This document shows, one piece after another, positions 1 to 7,775 of a DNA stretch of 7,775 nt (positions are counted from its first letter, which is position 1; every line of letters starts with the position of its first letter). A program made the position numbers and the translations under genes. The notes beneath the pieces are model-generated. The model worked only from the letters and a program-made list of their open reading frames with translations, was not told where the DNA came from and did not search any database. Origin of the DNA: a virus (lineage: Duplodnaviria; Heunggongvirae; Uroviricota; Caudoviricetes); IMG/VR virus record IMGVR_UViG_3300029490_000113, positions 1-7,775 of that record. One strand, given 5' to 3'.

Positions 1-860
1 GTCAGGCTGGATGGCGTGGAAAAATAGGTTTGTCGCCATTTTTTGTGAATAGCCATACCGGAAGCCACTTTGCGCAGCTCCTGGAATTTCGGTATCCAGA
101 AATATTCATCCAGATACAGGTTGCCGTGGTAACTCTGGGCCGTGCGGGCATTGGTGCCGAGGAAGTAAAGCGTGGCCCCGTTGGGAAGCACCATCGGATC
201 GCCTTTCAGCTCCACTTCCACTTCTTTGGCGAAGTCGATGATGTACTGCTTAAAGACGTGCGCCTGTGCCTTACTGGCAGAAAGGAAAATCTGGTTACGT
301 CCGGTTAGCAGGGCGTCAATCAGGGCTTCACGGGCAAAATAGAAGGTCGCGCCGATCTGGCGTGACTTCAGCAGGTTGCGGATGCGGTTGGTTTTTCCGG
401 CTTCCCACCAGTGACGCTGGTAGTTGAACATGGAGGAATGGAAGATTTCTTCCAGCTTCTCAATCTGTTCATTGGTGAAAACATTCTTTTCAGGCTGACG
501 GCGCGGGCCTTTGTTGCGGTTGGCGACGTTAGGGTTTAAATCGGCTTCGTTGCCGCCATTGTTAAACTTGCCGATCCGCGCGTGGCGCTCCGACTGGCGC
601 GCCAGCAGATCAATTTCTTTGAAATCTTTCCCTTCTTTGTGCTCCTTCATAATGAGCTGGCAGTAACGTGCGGCGGTGGTGAGCTGCATCTGATCCAGCG
701 GCCCATAGTCACCCCACTTGTCGCGTTTTTTCCAGCTGTGAACGGTTGCAACTTTCTCGCCCAGCATTTCAGCAATGCGGGCTACGCGGTATCCCTGAAA
801 GTACAGCAGCATGGCCTGCCGACGGGGATCGAGATCTGCGGGTGTCAGTGTGGTGTTCAT
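1..860 (-). CDS. P: P2-family terminase large (ATPase) subunit GpP; N-terminal ~286 codons, 3' end beyond window start
   Basis: Hand translation of the reverse complement from ATG at 860..858 is open to position 1 and reads [43 protein letters not shown]...[13 protein letters not shown]. This has an N-terminal HTH-like segment and resembles P2 GpP as I remember it. An in-frame TAG lies 4 codons upstream (870..872). It is divergent from gpO, as in P2. Not in the ORF track because no stop falls inside the window. Confidence 0.85.
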
Positions 861-906
861 GGCACAAACCTACAGCCTTGAATGAAGGCTTTCCCCGCCT
901 GCGGTT

Positions 907-924
907 TGTGTGGTTGTCGGTACA
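907..924 (+). promoter_or_regulatory. Candidate Ogr-dependent late promoter element (TGT-N12-ACA dyad) for the gpO-N-M operon
   Basis: TGTgtggttgtcggtACA sits in the 142 bp divergent gpP/gpO intergenic region. It matches the TGT-N12-ACA half-site spacing described for P2/P4 late promoters. Its centre is about 55-60 bp upstream of a plausible start near 970-975, with a weak -10-like CATAAG at 963..968. A 6-specified-base dyad is expected about twice by chance in 7.8 kb, so position is the main support. Confidence 0.4.
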
Positions 925-1002
925 AATACCGCGCATTGTTTCACTGCCCCCATCACCGCAACCATAAGGCTCCAGTAAGTTTTTTCTAACGGAGCACGGC
1001 TC

Positions 1003-1836
1003 ATGACAGTGAAAGCAAAGCGTTTTCGCATCGGGGTGGAAGGTGCCACCACCGACGGACGCGAAATCCAGCGTGAATGGCTGGAACAGATGGCAGCCAG
1101 CTACAACCCGGCGGTGTATACCGCGCTGATTAACCTTGAGCACATCAAGTCTTATCTGCCGGACAGCACCTTTAACCGCTACGGCAAGGTGACGGCGCTG
1201 TTTGCTGAAGAAATCACGGAAGGTCCGCTGGCAGGCAAGATGGCGCTGTATGCCGACGTTGAGCCAACAGAGTCCCTGGTGGAGCTGGTGAAAAAAGGCC
1301 AGAAATTATTCACCTCTATGGAAGTCAGCCCAAAGTTTGCTGATACGGGCAAAGCCTACCTGGTCGGGCTGGCTGCCACTGATGACCCTGCCAGTCTGGG
1401 CACTGAAATGCTGACATTCAGCGCCAGTGCAGCCCATAACCCGCTGGCAAACCGCAAGCAGAATCCTGCCAATCTCTTTACCGCTGCAGAGGAAACGGTG
1501 ATCGAACTGGAAGAAATCCAGGAGGACAAGCCGTCCCTGTTTGCCCGCGTCACGGCGCTGTTCACCAAAAAAGAGCAGTCCGACGATGCCCGGTTCTCTG
1601 ATGTGCATAAGGCCGTGGAGCTGGTCGCCACTGAGCAGCAGAACCTGAGCGCACGCACCGAAAAATCCCTGTCTGAGCAGGAAGAACGTCTGTCTGAGCT
1701 GGAGACTGCCCTGCAGGCACAGCAGACCGCCTTTAACGAACTGGTGAATAAGCTGAGTCATGAAGACAGCCGCCAGGACTACCGCCAGCGTGCAACAGGC
1801 GGTAACGCCCCCGCTGACACTCTGACCAATTGCTGA
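1003..1836 (+). CDS. O: P2-family capsid scaffolding protein / prohead protease GpO
   Basis: 277 aa ORF, MTVKAKRFRIGVEG...NLEHIKSYLPD...YLVGLAATDDPASLGTE...DDARFSDVHKAV...ATGGNAPADTLTNC, is collinear with P2 GpO as I remember it. GGAG RBS at 991..994. It is followed 16 nt later by the capsid gene. Confidence 0.9.
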   Translation: MTVKAKRFRIGVEGATTDGREIQREWLEQMAASYNPAVYTALINLEHIKSYLPDSTFNRYGKVTALFAEEITEGPLAGKMALYADVEPTESLVELVKKGQKLFTSMEVSPKFADTGKAYLVGLAATDDPASLGTEMLTFSASAAHNPLANRKQNPANLFTAAEETVIELEEIQEDKPSLFARVTALFTKKEQSDDARFSDVHKAVELVATEQQNLSARTEKSLSEQEERLSELETALQAQQTAFNELVNKLSHEDSRQDYRQRATGGNAPADTLTNC

Positions 1837-1852
1837 TGGAGCACAAAACCCG

Positions 1853-2911
1853 ATGAAGAAGAATACCCGCTTTGCTTTTAACGCTTACCTGCAGCAGCTG
1901 GCGCGTCTGAACGGTGTGGCAGTTGAAGAACTGTCCAGCAAGTTCACCGTAGAGCCGTCCGTGCAGCAGACATTGGAAGACCAGATCCAGCAGTCCGCCG
2001 CTTTCCTGACGCTGATTAACGTCACGCCAGTGACTGAGCAGTCCGGTCAGCTGCTGGGGTTGGGAGTTGGCAGCACCATTGCCGGAACCACTGATACCAC
2101 CGCGAAAGAGCGTGAACCTGTCGATCCGACGCTGATGGTCGATGTGGAATATAAATGCGAGCAGACCAACTTTGACACGGTGCTGACCTACGCGAAGCTG
2201 GACCTGTGGGCGAAATTTCAGGATTTTCAGGTGCGTATCCGTGACGCCATCGTGAAACGTCAGGCACTGGACCGCATCATGATCGGCTTTAACGGCGTGA
2301 AGCGTGCGAAAACCTCCAACCGTAGCGAAAACCCGCTACTGCAGGATGTGAATAAAGGCTGGCTGCAGAAAATCCGTGAGGATGCACCGGATCACGTCAT
2401 GGGCAGCACCACCACGGGCGGTGAAACCACACCGGGCGCAGTGAAAGTCGGGAAAGGTGGCGAATATGCCAACCTGGACGCCGTGGTGATGGATGCCGTC
2501 AATGAGCTTATCGACGTGGTCTACCAGGACGATGACGATCTGGTGGTGATTTGCGGTCGTGAACTGCTGTCTGACAAGTATTTCCCGCTGGTCAACAAAG
2601 AGCAGGAAAACAGTGAAAAACTGGCTGCCGATATGATCATCAGTCAGAAACGCATGGGTGGCCTGCAGGCCGTGCGTGCGCCGTTCTTCCCGCCGAATGC
2701 ACTGCTGATCACCCGTCTGGATAACCTGTCCATCTACTGGCAGGAAGACACCCGCCGCCGTTCAGTTATCGACAACCCGAAACGTGACCGGATTGAAAAC
2801 TTTGAATCCGTTAACGAAGCCTATGTGGTTGAGGACTACCGCTGTGCCGCACTGGTGGAAAACATCCAGATTGGCGACTTCAGCGCCGCCGCAGCAGAAA
2901 CCGGAGCGTAA
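1853..2911 (+). CDS. N: P2-family major capsid protein GpN
   Basis: 352 aa ORF, MKKNTRFAFNAYLQQ...KFTVEPSVQQTL...TLDLWAKFQDFQVRIRDAIVKRQALD...VGKGGEYANLDAVVMDA...SQKRMGGLQAVR, matches the P2 GpN family. GGAG RBS at 1838..1841. Tightly packed between O and M. Confidence 0.9.
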   Translation: MKKNTRFAFNAYLQQLARLNGVAVEELSSKFTVEPSVQQTLEDQIQQSAAFLTLINVTPVTEQSGQLLGLGVGSTIAGTTDTTAKEREPVDPTLMVDVEYKCEQTNFDTVLTYAKLDLWAKFQDFQVRIRDAIVKRQALDRIMIGFNGVKRAKTSNRSENPLLQDVNKGWLQKIREDAPDHVMGSTTTGGETTPGAVKVGKGGEYANLDAVVMDAVNELIDVVYQDDDDLVVICGRELLSDKYFPLVNKEQENSEKLAADMIISQKRMGGLQAVRAPFFPPNALLITRLDNLSIYWQEDTRRRSVIDNPKRDRIENFESVNEAYVVEDYRCAALVENIQIGDFSAAAAETGA

Positions 2912-2914
2912 TTC

Positions 2915-3487
2915 ATGAGCCTGAGTCCCGCACGGCAGCATCGCCTGCGCGTTCAGGCTGAACAGGCCGCCCGCGAGGGCGGCAGTGTTCGCCACGCGTC
3001 GGGCTATGACCTGATGCTGCTGCAACTGGCGGAAGACCGCCGCCGTCTCAAGGGCGTTCAGTCCACGGTCAAAAAAGCGGAAATCAAGGTGGAGCTGCTG
3101 CCGAAGTACGCCGCCTGGGCAGAGGGTGTCCTGGCTGCCGGAGGCGCTCAACAGGATGACGTGCTGATGTACGTGATGCTGTGGCGCATTGATGCCGGAG
3201 ATTATGCCGGGGCGCTGGAGATCGGGCGTCATGCCCTGCGTCATGGCTGGGTGATGCCACTGGGTAACCGCAATGTGCAGACCGTGCTGGCAGAGGAAAT
3301 GGCAGATGCAGCGCAGAGCGCAATGCTTGCCGCCACCGGCTTTGATGCCGATCTGTTGTTGCTGACGCTGGAGCTGACAGACGGTCTGGATATGCCGGAC
3401 CAGTCACGGGCGCGTCTGCATAAAGCGATTGGCGCTGTTCTGAGTGAAAGCAATCCGGCTTTACGACCAGTCTGGAGCTTGAAGTGA
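2915..3487 (+). CDS. M: P2-family terminase small (endonuclease) subunit GpM, probably C-terminally truncated
   Basis: 190 aa ORF with GAQQDDVLMYVMLWRIDAGDYAGALEIGRHALRHG and LELTDGLDMPDQSRARLHKAIG, resembling P2 GpM. Start is 3 nt after the gpN stop, with GGAG RBS at 2903..2906. P2 GpM is about 247 aa as I recall, and the expected basic C-terminal tail is missing. The ORF ends ...ESNPALRPVWSLK and is followed by AT-rich DNA instead of gene L. Confidence 0.75.
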   Translation: MSLSPARQHRLRVQAEQAAREGGSVRHASGYDLMLLQLAEDRRRLKGVQSTVKKAEIKVELLPKYAAWAEGVLAAGGAQQDDVLMYVMLWRIDAGDYAGALEIGRHALRHGWVMPLGNRNVQTVLAEEMADAAQSAMLAATGFDADLLLLTLELTDGLDMPDQSRARLHKAIGAVLSESNPALRPVWSLK

Positions 3488-3603
3488 GGATTGATGATTT
3501 CGAAATGGAATGATTCTTCGCAATGGAGAACTTTTAAGTTTGCAAAATGGAATAATGCGGTATCATTATTGTGAATTTAGCAAAAATGGGGAGAACTCGA
3601 AAA

Positions 3604-3822
3604 ATGATGATTTGCCCACTGTGTGGAAGTGCCGCCCATACTCGCAGCAGTTTTCAGGTATCTTCATTGACCAAAGAGCGTTACAACCAGTGCCAGAACA
3701 TTAACTGCAGCCATACTTTTGTTACCCATGAAACTTTTGTTCGTTCGATTGCAACGCCAAAAGAGTCAAATCCGGTTCAGCCGCATCCAATGAAATCAGG
3801 ACAGGTGGCGCTCTCCCTTTGA
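3604..3822 (+). CDS. ogr: Ogr/Delta-family zinc-finger late transcription activator
   Basis: MMICPLCGSAAHTRSS...KERYNQCQNINCSHTFVTHE...VQPHPMKSGQ has the CxxC...CxxxxC zinc-binding arrangement and aligns with P2 Ogr (MFHCPLCQHAAH...KERYHQCQNVNCSATF...). Start chosen at ATG 3604 (or 3607), preceded by GGGGAGA at 3587..3593. The ORF-track start at 3571 is a GTG further upstream in the same frame. Confidence 0.85.
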   Translation: MMICPLCGSAAHTRSSFQVSSLTKERYNQCQNINCSHTFVTHETFVRSIATPKESNPVQPHPMKSGQVALSL

Positions 3823-3900
3823 CGCTGCCGCCATTTTGTCGCCATCGTTAAAAAACAGTGCTTCTAACATCATGATTTTAAACAGCTTAAATTTCAGGCA

Positions 3901-3945
3901 ACAAAAAACCCATCAACCTTGAACCGAAATGGCGGGGTTGATGGG
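3901..3945 (-). terminator. Rho-independent terminator (minus-strand orientation), probably for ybjL
   Basis: 10 bp perfect inverted repeat cccatcaacc (3909..3918) / ggttgatggg (3936..3945) with a 17 nt loop. On the minus strand the stem is followed by TTTTTTGTT. It lies 113 nt downstream of the ybjL stop. There is no T-run after the stem on the plus strand. Confidence 0.5.
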
Positions 3946-4057
3946 CTCCACAAAATGGGGACATCAAAGAAAAGCAGTGGCACTAATTAAGACTGATGCC
4001 CTGCGGAAAAGTTCTGCGGTTGTGCAAAAAAATTTCATTTTCAGGGCAACTTCAGTT

Positions 4058-5743
4058 TTATCCTAATCCTGGCCATACCATGACGATGATTGTCCCTGCC
4101 AGCGTCAGCAGGACGTTGGCGATTGCATAGGTGCCCGCATAGCCCAGCGCCGGGATGTTACTGCGAGCTGTATCACTGATGATCTCCATTGCCGGCGCGC
4201 AGGTACGTGCGCCCATCATTGCGCCGAACAACAGCGCGCGGTTCATTCGCAATACATAAGCACCGAATAAGAAACAGATAACCACGGGCACCAGACTGAC
4301 AATCAATCCGGCAATCAACATCTGACCGCCAATCGCGCCCAGGCCGTTATTAATACCGCTACCGGCGCTCAGACCAACGCCTGCCATAAACACCATCAAG
4401 CCGAACTCTTTCACCATGCTTAATGCACCCTGCGGAATGTAACCGAAGGTCGGGTGGTTAGCACGCATAAAGCCCAGCATAATTCCGGCGAATAACAACC
4501 CGGCAGCGTTCCCCATGCCGAAACTGAATGTGCTGAACTGGAAGGTGATCATCCCGATCATCAGCCCAATAACAAAGAAGGCGCAGAATGCCAGCAGGTC
4601 AGTGACCTGGCTGTGAATCGAGATAAAGCCGATGCGATCGGCGATGGTTTTTACGCGGCGGGCATCGCCGCTGACTTGTAAAACGTCACCTTTGTTAAGC
4701 ACGACGTTGTCATCTATCGGCATCTCAATCTGGCTACGAATGACGCGGTTAAGGAAGCAACCGTGATCGGTCAACTTCAGTTGTGCGAGACGTTTACCTA
4801 CAGCGTTATGGTTTTTAACGACCACTTCTTCAGTGACGATACGCATGTCGAGAAGGTCACGATCGAAAACTTCTTTACCGTTACGGAAGCTGGGATCGAG
4901 TCGGGCATGGGCGTCGGGATAGCCTACCAACGCTATTTCATCGCCCATTTGTAGCACGGCATCACCGTCTGGATTTGCCAGAATCCCGTTACGTCGAATA
5001 CGTTCAATGTAGCAGCCGGTTTGTCGATAAATACCCAGTTCACGCAGATTTTTGCCGTCGGTCCAGGCCACCAGTTCCGGGCCGACGCGATAGGCGCGGA
5101 TCACCGGTAAATAAACCTTACGGTTGGCATCAGTGTCCAGGCCACGTTCGCGGGCGATTTGCTGGGCGCTGGTCTGTAAGTCCTGATGCTGCAATTTCGG
5201 CAAGTAACGCGCACCAACAATCAAACTCACCAGACCGATTAAATAGGTTAAGGCATACCCGAGGCTCAGATTATCCAGTGCCAGTGAGAGCTGCCTGCTT
5301 TCCATGCCGGAATGACGCAGTGTATCGCCAGCACCGACCAGAACCGGTGTCGACGTCATAGAGCCTGCTAACATACCGGCCGTCAGGCCAATATCCCAGC
5401 CAAACAGCTTACCTAACCCTAAGGCGATCACCAGCGCACTGCCAACCATCACCAGTGCTAACATTAGGTAATTTTTCCCATCGCGAAAAAAAATGGAAAA
5501 AAAGTTCGGTCCGGCTTCGACCCCGACGCAGAAAATAAACAGCATAAAGCCAAGATTAAGCGCATCGGTGTTAATGCTGAAATGTTGTTGGCCTAATAAC
5601 AGCGATACGACTAAAACGCCAATGGAATTACCCAGTTGGATCGAACCAAGTCGTAACTTTCCGAGACATAGCCCAAGCGCGAGGACCACAAATAATAACA
5701 GAATGTAATTCCCATTTAACAATTCGGCGACGTTTATATTCAC
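4058..5743 (-). CDS. ybjL: Putative transport protein YbjL (AAE-family transporter with cytoplasmic TrkA-C-like regulatory domains)
   Basis: 561 aa [37 protein letters not shown]..., matches E. coli YbjL over its full length from memory. Hydrophobic N- and C-terminal membrane domains flank a soluble middle region. The start codon is GTG at 5743. Confidence 0.9.
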
Positions 5744-6012
5744 GGAGGCTAACTTCTTGTTTACTAGTAAGCTGTTGAAAGAAATGGTAATTTACGATAA
5801 TGTTTTTTACCAGAATTCAGGGCGCAGATTCATTCAGCGCACCTAAACGATAGTAAAGTAACAATATATTTTACTAGTGTAATCACATTAGGTATCAACG
5901 GCTATATGAATTGCGTTGGCCTATATTAGCATGGAATGCGAAGCGGCTTTATCTTACTGAACGCCACACTGGCGAAAAATGTGTTCGATAGACGCAGTGT
6001 CAGGAGGAACGA

Positions 6013-6390
6013 GTGAAACATAAACAACGTTGGGCGGGGGCAATCTGCTGTTTTGTCCTCTTCATTGTGGTGTGCCTTTTTCTGGCGACGCACATGAAAG
6101 GCGCTTTTCGGGCTGCCGGGCATCCTGAAATCGGCTTGCTATTTTTCATTCTTCCTGGAGCAGTCGCCAGCTTCTTTTCACAGCGTAGAGAAGTCCTGAA
6201 ACCTCTGTTTGGCGCAATGCTGGCGGCACCCTGTTCGATGCTCATTATGCGGCTGTTTTTTTCACCGACGCGCTCATTCTGGCAAGAGCTGGCATGGTTA
6301 TTAAGTGCGGTGTTCTGGTGTGCGCTGGGGGCACTGTGTTTCTTATTTATCAGTAGTTTGTTTAAACCACAGCACAGAAAAAATCAGTAA
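6013..6390 (+). CDS. ybjM: Inner membrane protein YbjM
   Basis: 125 aa hydrophobic ORF, MKHKQRWAGAICCFVLFIVVCLF..., matching E. coli YbjM. GTG start with a strong AGGAGG RBS at 6002..6007. Divergent from ybjL. Confidence 0.85.
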   Translation: MKHKQRWAGAICCFVLFIVVCLFLATHMKGAFRAAGHPEIGLLFFILPGAVASFFSQRREVLKPLFGAMLAAPCSMLIMRLFFSPTRSFWQELAWLLSAVFWCALGALCFLFISSLFKPQHRKNQ

Positions 6391-6409
6391 AGCCCTCAAC
6401 GCGAGGGCT
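6391..6409. terminator. Short GC hairpin between convergent ybjM and grxA stops (possible bidirectional terminator)
   Basis: AGCCCTC aacgc GAGGGCT, a 7 bp stem, begins immediately after the ybjM TAA (6388..6390) and ends 10 nt before the grxA stop (6420..6422). T-runs are weak on both sides. Confidence 0.4.
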
Positions 6410-6419
6410 TGTCAGACGA

Positions 6420-6677
6420 TCAGGCGTCCAGATTTTCTTTCACCCATGCAGCAAAATCGGTATAGCCGCCGATATGTTGCTGATCGACAAAAATCTGCGG
6501 CACGGTTTCTACGGGTTTACCTGCCTTTTGTTGTAGATCTTCTTTAGTGATCCCTTCCGCACGAATATCTACATAGTGATACTGAAAATCATCGTGTTCA
6601 TTGCTCAATTTCTCAGCCAGATCTTTTGCACGCACACAGTAAGGGCAACCCGGACGACCAAAAATAACGGTTTGCAT
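6420..6677 (-). CDS. grxA: Glutaredoxin 1
   Basis: MQTVIFGRPGCPYCVRAKDLAEKLS...VPQIFVDQQHIGGYTDFAAWVKENLDA contains the CPYC active site and matches E. coli GrxA (85 aa). Start set at ATG 6677..6675, which is preceded by GAGGAGAGAA. The longer track ORF (to 6692) starts at an ATG that lies within that Shine-Dalgarno sequence. Confidence 0.9.
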   Translation of the reverse strand: MQTVIFGRPGCPYCVRAKDLAEKLSNEHDDFQYHYVDIRAEGITKEDLQQKAGKPVETVPQIFVDQQHIGGYTDFAAWVKENLDA

Positions 6678-6836
6678 TATTTCTCTCCTCATAGATTTAT
6701 GCCTGTAATGATCACGCTAAAATGTATTCGCTGAAAGTAGGTTTAACCTGTTGCATTAATTGCTAAAAGCTATAACTGTTAAACACAATACAGTGAAAAG
6801 TTTTAGACTGAAGGCTCACTTTGCAGAGGGAAGCGT

Positions 6837-7124
6837 ATGCGCGCGATCGGTAAATTGCCTAAAGGCGTGTTGATACTGGAATTTATCGGAATGATGCTAC
6901 TGGCGGTGGCGCTGCTGTCGGTAAGCGACTCCCTGTCGCTGCCTGAGCCATTTTCTCGGCCAGAAGTGCAGATTCTGATGATTTTTCTCGGTGTTTTGCT
7001 CATGCTTCCCGCTGCGGTGGTGGTTATTCTTCAGGTGGCAAAACGTCTTGCCCCACAGCTGATGAACCGTCCACCGCAATATTCACGTTCAGAAAGAGAA
7101 AAAGATAATGACGCCAACCATTGA
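6837..7124 (+). CDS. ybjC: Small inner-membrane protein YbjC (DUF1418), first gene of the ybjC-nfsA operon
   Basis: 95 aa ORF, MRAIGKLPKGVLILEFIGMMLLAVALLSVSDS..., matches E. coli YbjC. AGAGGG RBS at 6825..6830. Its 3' end overlaps the nfsA start by 17 nt. Confidence 0.85.
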   Translation: MRAIGKLPKGVLILEFIGMMLLAVALLSVSDSLSLPEPFSRPEVQILMIFLGVLLMLPAAVVVILQVAKRLAPQLMNRPPQYSRSEREKDNDANH

Positions 7125-7775
7125 ACTTATTTGTGGCCATCGCTCCATTCGCCATTTCACTGATGAACCCATTTCCGAAGCGCAGCGTGAGGCGATTATT
7201 AACAGCGCCCGTGCGACGTCCAGTTCCAGTTTTTTGCAGTGCAGTAGCATTATTCGCATTACCGACAAAGCGTTACGTGAAGAACTGGTGACGCTGACCG
7301 GTGGGCAAAAACACGTAGCGCAAGCGGCGGAGTTCTGGGTGTTCTGTGCCGACTTTAACCGCCATTTACAGATCTGTCCGGATGCTCAGCTCGGTCTGGC
7401 GGAACAACTGTTGCTCGGTGTCGTTGATACGGCAATGATGGCGCAGAATGCATTAATCGCAGCGGAATCGCTGGGATTGGGCGGCGTATATATCGGCGGC
7501 CTGCGCAATAATATTGAAGCGGTGACGAAACTGCTGAAATTACCGCAGCATGTTCTGCCGCTGTTTGGGCTGTGCCTTGGCTGGCCTGCGGATAATCCGG
7601 ATCTTAAGCCGCGTTTACCGTCCTCCATTTTGGTGCATGAAAACAGCTATCAACCGCTGGATAAAGACGCACTGGCGCAGTATGACGAACAACTGGCTGA
7701 ATATTACCTCACCCGTGGCAGCAATAATCGCCGGGATACCTGGAGCGATCATATCCGCCGAACAATCATTAAAGA
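7108..7775 (+). CDS. nfsA: Oxygen-insensitive NADPH nitroreductase NfsA (5' portion, runs off window end)
   Basis: Translation from ATG 7108 gives MTPTIELICGHRSIRHFTDEPISEAQREAIINSARATSSSSFLQCSSIIRITDKALREEL..., matching E. coli NfsA. No stop before the window end. Confidence 0.9.
   Translation, partial: MTPTIELICGHRSIRHFTDEPISEAQREAIINSARATSSSSFLQCSSIIRITDKALREELVTLTGGQKHVAQAAEFWVFCADFNRHLQICPDAQLGLAEQLLLGVVDTAMMAQNALIAAESLGLGGVYIGGLRNNIEAVTKLLKLPQHVLPLFGLCLGWPADNPDLKPRLPSSILVHENSYQPLDKDALAQYDEQLAEYYLTRGSNNRRDTWSDHIRRTIIK

Follow-up and report, generated by a model that had tools for sequence, protein, structure and literature searches.

P2-type prophages inserted at the rybB non-coding RNA site of Escherichia coli have been described before: Rybb*W, Rybb*B and Rybb*Cr, carried by E. 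coli W, B and Crooks, are defective copies, and the same compilation (Archer et al., 2011; PMC3032704, Table 2) gives ogr-D' at the cyaR site as the cryptic P2 remnant of K-12. Conserved defence genes have also been reported from P2-like prophages that are defective (bioRxiv 10.64898/2026.02.27.708500). In P2 and 186 themselves the modules run in the order Q-P / O-N-M-L ... T-U-D-ogr/B-att, and M lies 18.1 kb (P2) or 14.0 kb (186) from ogr. The DNA analysed here, referred to below as the window, is the whole 7,775-nt stretch of IMG/VR record IMGVR_UViG_3300029490_000113. At positions 1-3913 it contains the right arm of a prophage of the family Peduoviridae (the P2 family), inserted at the rybB 3' end (Table 1). 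We conclude that this arm is very probably defective, a single illegitimate recombination having joined codon 182 of M to D and removed 15.7 kb of late genes.

Table 1. Features of the prophage arm and its host junction, in window coordinates.
Feature	Position	Strand	Basis or remark
gpP homologue (terminase large subunit), 5' part	1-860	-	Start codon 858-860; runs off left edge
P/O region, putative divergent late promoter	861-1002	none	Pattern search
gpO homologue (capsid scaffold/protease), full length, 277 aa	1003-1836	+	Phage_GPO 2-268 of 268
gpN homologue (major capsid protein), full length, 352 aa	1853-2911	+	Phage_cap_P2 1-327 of 327
gpM' (terminase small subunit, truncated)	2915-3487	+	Native for 182 codons (to 3460/3461), out of frame for the last 8; TGA 3485-3487
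Deletion junction	3456-3461	none	Overlapping BLAST segments against relatives L001, L002 and L013
'D (tail gene D), last 52 bp	3462-3513	+	Native TGA 3511-3513; one mismatch to the D 3' end in L001 and L002
ogr promoter, sigma-70-like, predicted	3539-3566	+	TTTGCA-16-TATCAT; consensus scan
ogr (late-gene activator, Ogr/Delta zinc finger), 72 aa, intact	3604-3822	+	Pfam Ogr_Delta
attR, phage-side arm	3823-3899	none	3' of ogr
att core, 14 bp, AACAAAAAACCCAT	3900-3913	none	Identical 14-mer in attL beside rcdA of relative L003
rybB, host sRNA gene, complete	3900-3978	-	Rfam RF00110, 105.3 bits, model 1-79 of 79; K-12 annotation

The gene order P' (minus strand), O, N, M', 'D, ogr, attR is the annotated order of P2 and 186 minus the deleted block, with P divergent from O-N-M and D-ogr lying beside att, and the Pfam families and the Ogr/B-type dyad between P and O are likewise common to the window and to those phages. 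All of the Peduoviridae hallmarks (gpP, gpO, gpN, gpM and the Ogr/Delta activator) were recovered by Pfam far above the cut-offs. Membership in Peduovirus (P2) or Eganvirus (186) was rejected, as P, O, N, M and Ogr are only 45-63% identical in amino acid sequence to their counterparts in both. Positions 1-3461 instead match prophage-derived E. coli phage records and Klebsiella phage 4LV2017 (Elveevirus) at 97-98% nucleotide identity, so that on sequence the element appears closest to the Elveevirus group and distant from P2 and 186; the 97.2% found for 4LV2017 itself over that stretch is to be read with the window holding only 3.8 kb of phage DNA. Phage 4LV2017 and the intact prophage of E. 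coli strain FDAARGOS_497 have the same gene order and 96-97% nucleotide identity over P-O-N-M, but in both the late region is complete, including the 15.7 kb from L through D that the window lacks. The FDAARGOS_497 prophage also shares the window's site and has an Ogr identical at 72 of 72 residues, while the Ogr-like ORF of 4LV2017 is annotated with an N-terminus 6 residues longer and is otherwise identical. The lineage differs from P2 and 186 in the length of gpM (216 aa, versus 247 and 249 aa) and in its attachment sites, the 186 record annotating ileY as attB and the P2 record an attP core; the early genes of the window's relatives are of the 186 type (CI/CII/Fil/DinI-like) and not the C/Cox of P2.

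The integration site lies between rcdA and ybjL in E. coli, and past the prophage and rybB the window continues into the host genes ybjL-ybjM-grxA-ybjC-nfsA. The att core AACAAAAAACCCAT is duplicated, in the window's attR and in the attL of a relative, which marks site-specific integration, and homology between the window and the empty K-12 site starts at 3888. rybB is the host integration target and not phage DNA; since the end of its terminator overlaps the att core, integration regenerates the rybB terminator.

The deletion was mapped against the prophages of cM2a and GPEC1240, which carry nearly the same one, and against the intact FDAARGOS_497 prophage. Homology with every intact relative breaks off at 3461, where nucleotide 546 of M is fused to D 52 bp ahead of the D stop codon, and the remaining D sequence is collinear with positions 20007-20058 of the intact relative L013. 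M and D share an imperfect 6-bp microhomology at this point (CGGCTT in M versus CGGTTT in D), across which one illegitimate-recombination event would have joined codon 182 of M to the end of D. Relative to the FDAARGOS_497 prophage 15,687 bp are missing (reference positions 4320-20006), less than the roughly 20 kb of the preliminary description. The lost block comprises the end of M, then L, X, holin, endolysin, lysA/B/C, R, S, V, W, J, I, H, G, FI, FII, E, T, U and most of D. No complete virion or lysis module is left in the window, and the remnant could not make tails, as had been supposed. The same description had everything from L through D absent, which holds for L and for the lysis and tail genes between M and ogr but overlooks the last 52 bp of D. 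Between the M' stop (3487) and the ogr ATG (3604) lie 116 bp, close to the roughly 115 bp given earlier, and part of this interval is D.

The product of M' lacks the last 34 residues of the intact 216-aa gpM. In their place it has a foreign tail, LRPVWSLK, read from the D remnant, and its stop codon is not native; the Phage_term_smal domain (residues 35-163, Pfam) is still whole. The neighbouring genes are in better condition. The 286 N-terminal codons of gpP contained in the window (ORF at 3-860) are open, carry Terminase_5 and Terminase_6N domains and, when aligned with L013 over 286 columns, agree with it at 284 residues. gpO is identical to its homologues in intact relatives at 274/277 residues and equal to them in length, and gpN differs from that of an intact relative at a single residue (351/352 identical). 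The earlier reading of P, O, N and M as full-length genes without frameshifts or internal stops is therefore borne out for O and N, which are free of lesions, and for P as far as the window reaches, but not for M, which is cut by the deletion and ends out of frame. Only 3 private substitutions occur in 3,437 bp, too few to separate selection on O and N from young age.

We considered whether the junction could be an assembly artefact in which 15.7 kb had been collapsed or skipped between M' and 'D, the real late region being intact. All 5,426 complete E. coli genomes lack the junction, as would be expected of an artefact, and it was also absent among one-genome-per-species contigs; no record of the truncated M protein was found among known proteins. 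However, the imperfect 6-bp match shared by M and D is not a repeat that an assembler would collapse, and closed, mostly long-read genomes contain junctions of the same kind at the rybB locus, with 0-7 bp of microhomology, one of which (cM2a) uses the M position of the window exactly. An artefact is thus extremely improbable. A genuine deletion, specific to this strain rather than fixed, is the reading we retain.

The regulatory sequences that would serve the surviving genes appear to be in place. A pattern search found a TGT-N12-ACA dyad of the Ogr/B activator-site type in the P/O gap (907-924, predicted) and a second one, at 849-866, that overlaps the P start codon. The first ends 79 nt upstream of the O ATG, and the annotated B-protein site of 186 is equally far from gene V (3817 to 3896), suggesting that the region is an Ogr-dependent divergent late promoter. 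The predicted ogr promoter lies directly 3' of the D stop, as does pB in 186, and was compared with the annotated ogr promoter signals of P2. The ogr gene itself is retained, as the preliminary description had it, and its product is the protein WP_000972391.1 in all but two of the annotated remnant loci that we fetched.

With O, N and ogr undamaged and almost unchanged from their counterparts in intact phages, the M domain complete and both predicted control elements present, the locus could be read as a functional capsid module in which P, O, N and M, under Ogr, would supply heads to the host or to a P4-type satellite. Yet M has lost its last 34 residues and L is gone. P4 requires the tail and lysis genes of its helper besides the head genes (Q, P, O, N, M, L), and the remnant, having no tail or lysis genes, could not serve as helper. 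In other remnants at rybB the deletions take out M, N, part of P or most of O, giving no hint of selection for the retention of head genes, and small remnants that keep most head genes are scarce, with only 16 records covering at least 80% of the window in one place. Left deletion ends range from P to V among about 25 remnants, so head genes are not preferentially kept. We therefore regard a capsid module as very unlikely, and the use of these genes by a P4 satellite, envisaged earlier, does not survive the comparison. The idea of a remnant reduced to its head module fares no better: the window starts inside P and cannot show such a state, L is deleted, Q lies outside the window, and similarly deleted relatives keep the early region and defence cargo. 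It seems instead that the deletion merely happened to begin in M, the head genes not having been kept for a purpose. Ogr, if made after derepression, would drive harmless transcription of O, N and M'.

Defective P2-type prophages of the Rybb* type have already been described and crippled copies are common; the window's deletion is a private allele. This prophage type occupies rybB in about one fifth of complete E. coli genomes, and about a third of those copies have other internal deletions. The D'-ogr allele of the window occurs in 1,143/5,426 complete genomes, but a single place covering 80% or more of the late region plus host flank was present in only 737. Each of the approximately 25 remnants that we mapped at the locus has different deletions, and all keep ogr, attR and rybB. 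Decay can be stepwise, isolate 38A23CPO011 having the deletion of 38M23CPO005 plus one further. The prophages of cM2a and GPEC1240 still contain int, cI, cII, the replication genes, defence cargo, Q and P, and the defence-type cargo in such near-identically deleted relatives includes an AAA ATPase with DUF4435, AIPR and retron genes. The element would be a ‘grounded’ prophage, one that has lost host lysis and virion production. Loss of the lysis cassette while immunity stays, along with the defence cargo upstream of Q seen in relatives, is a likely reason why such deletions persist.

The deletion ends may not be scattered at random. Independent genomes have identical ends joined to differing partners. 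Reference position 4319/4320 (nucleotide 546 of M) is such an end in the window, in cM2a and in a remnant at the ssrA locus of FORC_081. Ends at 4295, 2582, 5545, 5851, 17247 and about 19302 are used twice each, and those at 2662, 15347-15349 and 17560 three times each. The re-used sites include nucleotides 522 and 546 of M, a site near the 3' end of O, two in the endolysin gene, and sites in E/T and in D; 15347-15349 serves both as a left and as a right end, and one of the uses of 17560 is a 12-bp-repeat deletion within T. Within a 400-bp stretch of M only 5/987 records have a break, and four of the five lie at 4295 or 4319/4320. The flanking haplotypes of genomes that share a breakpoint are as diverged as those of random pairs, and a held-out check on four further genomes gave about 8 new ends, 4 of them no more than 3 nt from a catalogued end.

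One explanation would be a sequence-specific DNA breakage or joining activity that repeatedly cuts the late region at preferred sites, nucleotide 546 of M among them. The first seven re-used sites all fit G-N-T-N|N-C. However, this motif is post hoc and is not shared by the later sites at 2582 and about 19302; shared microhomology makes the two ends of a junction non-independent, the remnants sampled number about 25 out of roughly 400, and comparison with known activities yielded no candidate enzyme. The re-used sites do not resemble the crossover sites of the prophage Din invertase, Chi, the cos of this lineage or the A-protein origin, and they have no notable hairpin. They are also unlike the consensus for quinolone-induced cleavage by gyrase and topoisomerase IV, which is G/C-rich and symmetric (PMC2094056). 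Specific cutting thus remains a tentative explanation, somewhat less probable than its absence. The wider proposal, that a sequence-preferring breakage or joining activity of the host, the phage or a defence system recurrently disarms P2-like prophages, with the window's junction as one of its products, is one we hold to be rather unlikely. If upheld, breakpoint re-use would suggest that prophages are inactivated by a specific mechanism.

Taken alone, the window adds a further grounded prophage of the P2 family to a known site and is of little weight. It is nevertheless a worked example of decay, in which one microhomology-mediated deletion would have stripped every lethal or virion-forming late function and spared ogr, attR and the rybB terminator. 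The wider rybB locus may be of more value than this single remnant, as the same prophage seems to have suffered independent deletions in about 400 complete E. coli genomes, a natural series for the study of deletion formation.

Among described systems, the window matches the Rybb* type, being a P2-type remnant at rybB, the site also occupied in E. coli B. The Rybb* copies share with it the site at the rybB 3' end, the phage lineage, the ogr protein and the presence of disabling internal deletions. That of E. coli B, which carries retron Ec86, has three other deletions (cII'-'A, O'-'endolysin and invertase'-'D) that leave most baseplate and fibre genes, whereas the window has a single deletion of 15.7 kb running from M to the end of D. 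The cryptic remnant of K-12 belongs to the P2 lineage proper and lies at a site other than rybB. Like the window, it has a truncated D and ogr beside att at an sRNA gene, the attR-proximal piece that is retained in every remnant we mapped. To our knowledge the K-12 remnant keeps nothing besides ogr-D'; the window, by contrast, still has P', O, N and M'.

The element that ends at rybB in the window is an ordinary defective prophage; both its family and its integration site are known, and its deletion is private. We mapped that deletion against the prophage that occupies the same site, with its late region intact, in E. coli FDAARGOS_497 (the reference, L013). Window 1-3461 aligns with reference 859-4319 and window 3456-7775 with reference 20001-24321, and once the 6-bp overlap at the junction (window 3456-3461) is resolved, reference 4320-20006 (15,687 bp) is absent. 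Most economically, one microhomology-mediated deletion would have formed this remnant. Its left end lies inside M, leaving 182 native codons followed by eight wrong-frame D codons (LRPVWSLK) and a stop, against 216 aa in intact M; the small-terminase Pfam domain (residues 35-163) is complete in the truncated product, as a domain match only. The right end falls 52 bp before the D stop (TGA at 3511-3513). The preliminary description of a defective P2-family remnant with undamaged O and N was real, and needed correcting where M seemed full length, without obvious lesions, and the loss was put at about 20 kb.

Alignment to the reference gave identities of 274/277 for O, 351/352 for N and 72/72 for Ogr. 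The window has three private substitutions in 3,437 bp, too few to speak to selection on O or N, and two of the three alter an amino acid (one in P, one in M). Both regulatory elements predicted in the table have counterparts in phage 186: the annotated B-protein site there has the same spacing as the dyad, which may have the same function in the window, and pB occupies the place equivalent to the predicted promoter, after the D stop. GC content is about 0.61 in M and drops to about 0.44 over the stretch of D remnant, ogr and attR (window 3401-4000), which fits an ogr and att arm compositionally distinct from the structural genes. From 3888 onward the window is collinear with K-12 at 99.5% identity, and no tRNA gene was found in the window.

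Features of the window (gene order from ORF listing, Pfam scans and alignment), re-used deletion ends in the reference, and regions in fetched loci (L-numbers)
Feature	Sequence	Position	Strand	Remarks
Terminase gpP, first 286 codons	window	3-860	minus	open ORF, continues past left edge
Divergent promoter region, 142 bp	window	between P and O
TGT-N12-ACA dyad	window	907-924		predicted; end lies 79 nt 5' of O start codon
O, 277 aa	window	1003-1836
N, 352 aa	window	1853-2911
M-like ORF, 190 aa	window	2915-3487
Promoter-like TTTGCA-16-TATCAT	window	3539-3566		predicted; after D stop
ogr, 72 aa	window	3604-3822
rybB sRNA gene, complete	window	3900-3978	minus	Rfam, 105 bits, full length
ybjL, ybjM, grxA, ybjC, then nfsA start	window	downstream of rybB		E. 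coli DNA
nfsA	window	from about 7108		cut by window end
Re-used end	reference	2582		2 times
Re-used end	reference	2662		3 times
Re-used end	reference	4295		2 times
Re-used end	reference	5545		2 times
Re-used end	reference	5851		2 times
Re-used end	reference	15347-15349		3 times; serves as left end and as right end
Re-used end	reference	17247		2 times
Re-used end	reference	17560		3 times; one is a 12-bp-repeat deletion within T
Re-used end	reference	about 19302		2 times
Cargo region	L001	7774-9984
Cargo region	L002	7443-10033
Cargo region	L005	5654-7702
Cargo regions	L025-L034	about 4000-7050 and 15400-17600
nfsA, annotated pseudogene	L002	23365-24087
nfsA, annotated pseudogene	L013	23653-24376
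nfsA, annotated pseudogene	L017	6031-6753

The site is empty in K-12 (rcdA, rybB, ybjL), and a 14-bp att core, AACAAAAAACCCAT, is found both in the window and at a relative's attL. The core overlaps the rybB terminator, so that integration regenerates the 3' end of the sRNA; the attachment site of this phage is thus an sRNA 3' end. For E. coli W, B and Crooks, the rybB ncRNA has been listed among the insertion sites of P2-type prophages (Archer et al., 2011, PMC3032704). Several of the fetched strains have an nfsA, just downstream of the locus, whose annotation is that of a pseudogene with an internal stop or a frameshift. Nitrofuran resistance has been linked to loss of functional NfsA.

Whether the deletion is fixed or strain-specific, a check proposed at the outset, has a clear answer: it is shared by none of 5,426 complete E. 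coli genomes. The host part is matched by 5,424 of them. Coverage of at least 80% of the window at a single place is limited to 16 records, and in all 16 it comes in two pieces with extra DNA between. The junction had no exact match in a scan of one-genome-per-species contigs, and a look-up of the truncated M protein gave no record; the O protein occurs too widely to be of diagnostic use (6,127 blocks; the 10 places listed were mostly intact prophages). The nearest structure is that of strain cM2a, in which M' is fused to the last 606 bp of D at a junction that is itself unique. The closest P-O-N-M' haplotype (99.5%) belongs to a scrambled remnant at ssrA in FORC_081. This remnant (NZ_CP029057.1, 4595408-4616868) adjoins ssrA, not rybB, and its M' is broken at the window's position, after which come pieces of sheath, invertase, fibre-assembly, endolysin and holin genes in inverted orientation; at rybB, FORC_081 has another copy, which IS26 interrupts.

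Remnants of this kind are common. Among the complete genomes, the D'-ogr allele occurs in 1,143, P-O-N-M at 80% coverage or more in 977, and at least 80% of a 25-kb query, built from the M-to-ogr region and 8.4 kb of host flank, in 737, so that about one carrier in three lacks a substantial part of the late region. In the approximately 25 remnants that we mapped, left ends lie in P (851), O (2287-2662), N (2811, 3070) and M (3864-4320), and further ones in L, the holin gene, the endolysin gene, R and V; right ends range from the endolysin gene to D, and ogr, attR and rybB are kept in every one. Since left ends extend from P to V, the head genes are not a preferentially retained unit, and the window is simply the case whose deletion started in M. 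Two Ottawa isolates of a Canadian surveillance series, 38A23CPO011 and 38M23CPO005, have a V-to-T deletion in common, and one of them has also lost L, X, holin, endolysin and lysA/B through a further deletion, from M' to lysC, so that prophage decay is visible step by step.

In the remnants whose upstream DNA was fetched, int, cI, the replication genes and Q are still present, and the cargo lying between the DinI-like gene and Q is variable and of defence type. Across these prophages cargo is highly variable at two places, from the DinI-like gene/cos to Q and from S to V, and includes AAA ATPase with DUF4435, AIPR, retron RT with effector, GmrSD, SIR2 with DUF87, KAP NTPase, TIR, and HNH with AAA. 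Both places presumably correspond to the P2 defence hot spots of the literature. Without the lysis cassette, induction would no longer carry its cost, and whatever immunity and cargo lie upstream would be retained, which could favor persistence. Defective P2-like prophages with conserved defence genes have likewise been noted (2026 preprint, bioRxiv 10.64898/2026.02.27.708500).

The element in the window would be a grounded prophage arm, incapable of cell lysis, of head completion (it has no L) and of making tails. What P4 demands of its helper is established P2/P4 biology, and with these functions gone a helper role is impossible; the suggestion that the arm could supply heads to a P4-type satellite is not supported.

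Breakpoint re-use is the sole element that might repay further work. Reference 4319, the M break of the window, is also where cM2a is broken, and the FORC_081 remnant breaks within 1 bp of it; the partner sequence differs in each. Only 5 of 987 records break inside a 400-bp stretch of M, four of them at 4295 or 4319/4320. Four extra genomes, fetched later, contributed about 8 new ends, 4 of which lay no more than 3 nt from catalogued ends. The flanks of breakpoint-sharing genomes are about 2-3% diverged, like those of random pairs, which makes recent common descent unlikely as the source of common breakpoints; the exception is the pair formed by the window and the FORC_081 ssrA remnant, separated by 18 SNPs. 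Homologous recombination between deletion alleles should, by reasoning, be unable to make new half-junctions. Independent remnants appear, in a small sample of about 25, to re-use identical breakpoints with different partners. A G-N-T-N|N-C motif, found post hoc, is read by the first seven re-used sites and is absent from two identified later, and we offer it only tentatively as a feature of such sites.

No mechanism for the re-use emerged from comparisons with invertase sites, Chi, hairpins, cos and the A-protein origin. The canonical crossover sites of the prophage's Din-family invertase (TTCTCGCATACCTTGGTTTGGGAGA and its partner) are unlike the M or D sites, and the cos of this lineage (GGCGTGGCGGGGATACGAG) is unlike the M site, so that an invertase quasi-site and pseudo-cos cleavage by terminase were both rejected. 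RecBCD was rejected as well, since the window has no exact Chi and none lies beside the breakpoints; the fold at the M site is not unusual (z = -1.1), so hairpin-driven slippage is not supported; and the ori regions of P2, 186 and this lineage, as models for a pseudo-origin of the rolling-circle A protein, are unlike the break sites, and this mechanism too was rejected. The quinolone gyrase/topoisomerase IV consensus is symmetric and G/C-rich (PMC2094056); the re-used sites are not symmetric and do not resemble it.

As to lineage, several prophage-derived E. coli phage records and many Klebsiella phages, 4LV2017 (Peduoviridae, Elveevirus) among them, match window 1-3461 at 97-98% identity, and all of these matches stop at 3461. 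The head genes have 97% nucleotide identity to many Klebsiella pneumoniae prophages, which indicates recent cross-genus exchange of the phage lineage. One record named as a phage, 'Escherichia phage vB_EcoM-813R9' (ON470620.1), covers a prophage region together with flanking host DNA (on one side, dacC to rcdA). Its tail-fibre gene H runs straight into ybjT, ybjS and amiD, which are inverted, so the record represents a rearranged or partial prophage and not a phage genome. The window's proteins are just 45-63% identical to those of P2 and 186, so that the element belongs to the P2 family and is neither of the two, and its same-site relatives carry 186-type early genes (CI, CII, Fil, DinI-like).
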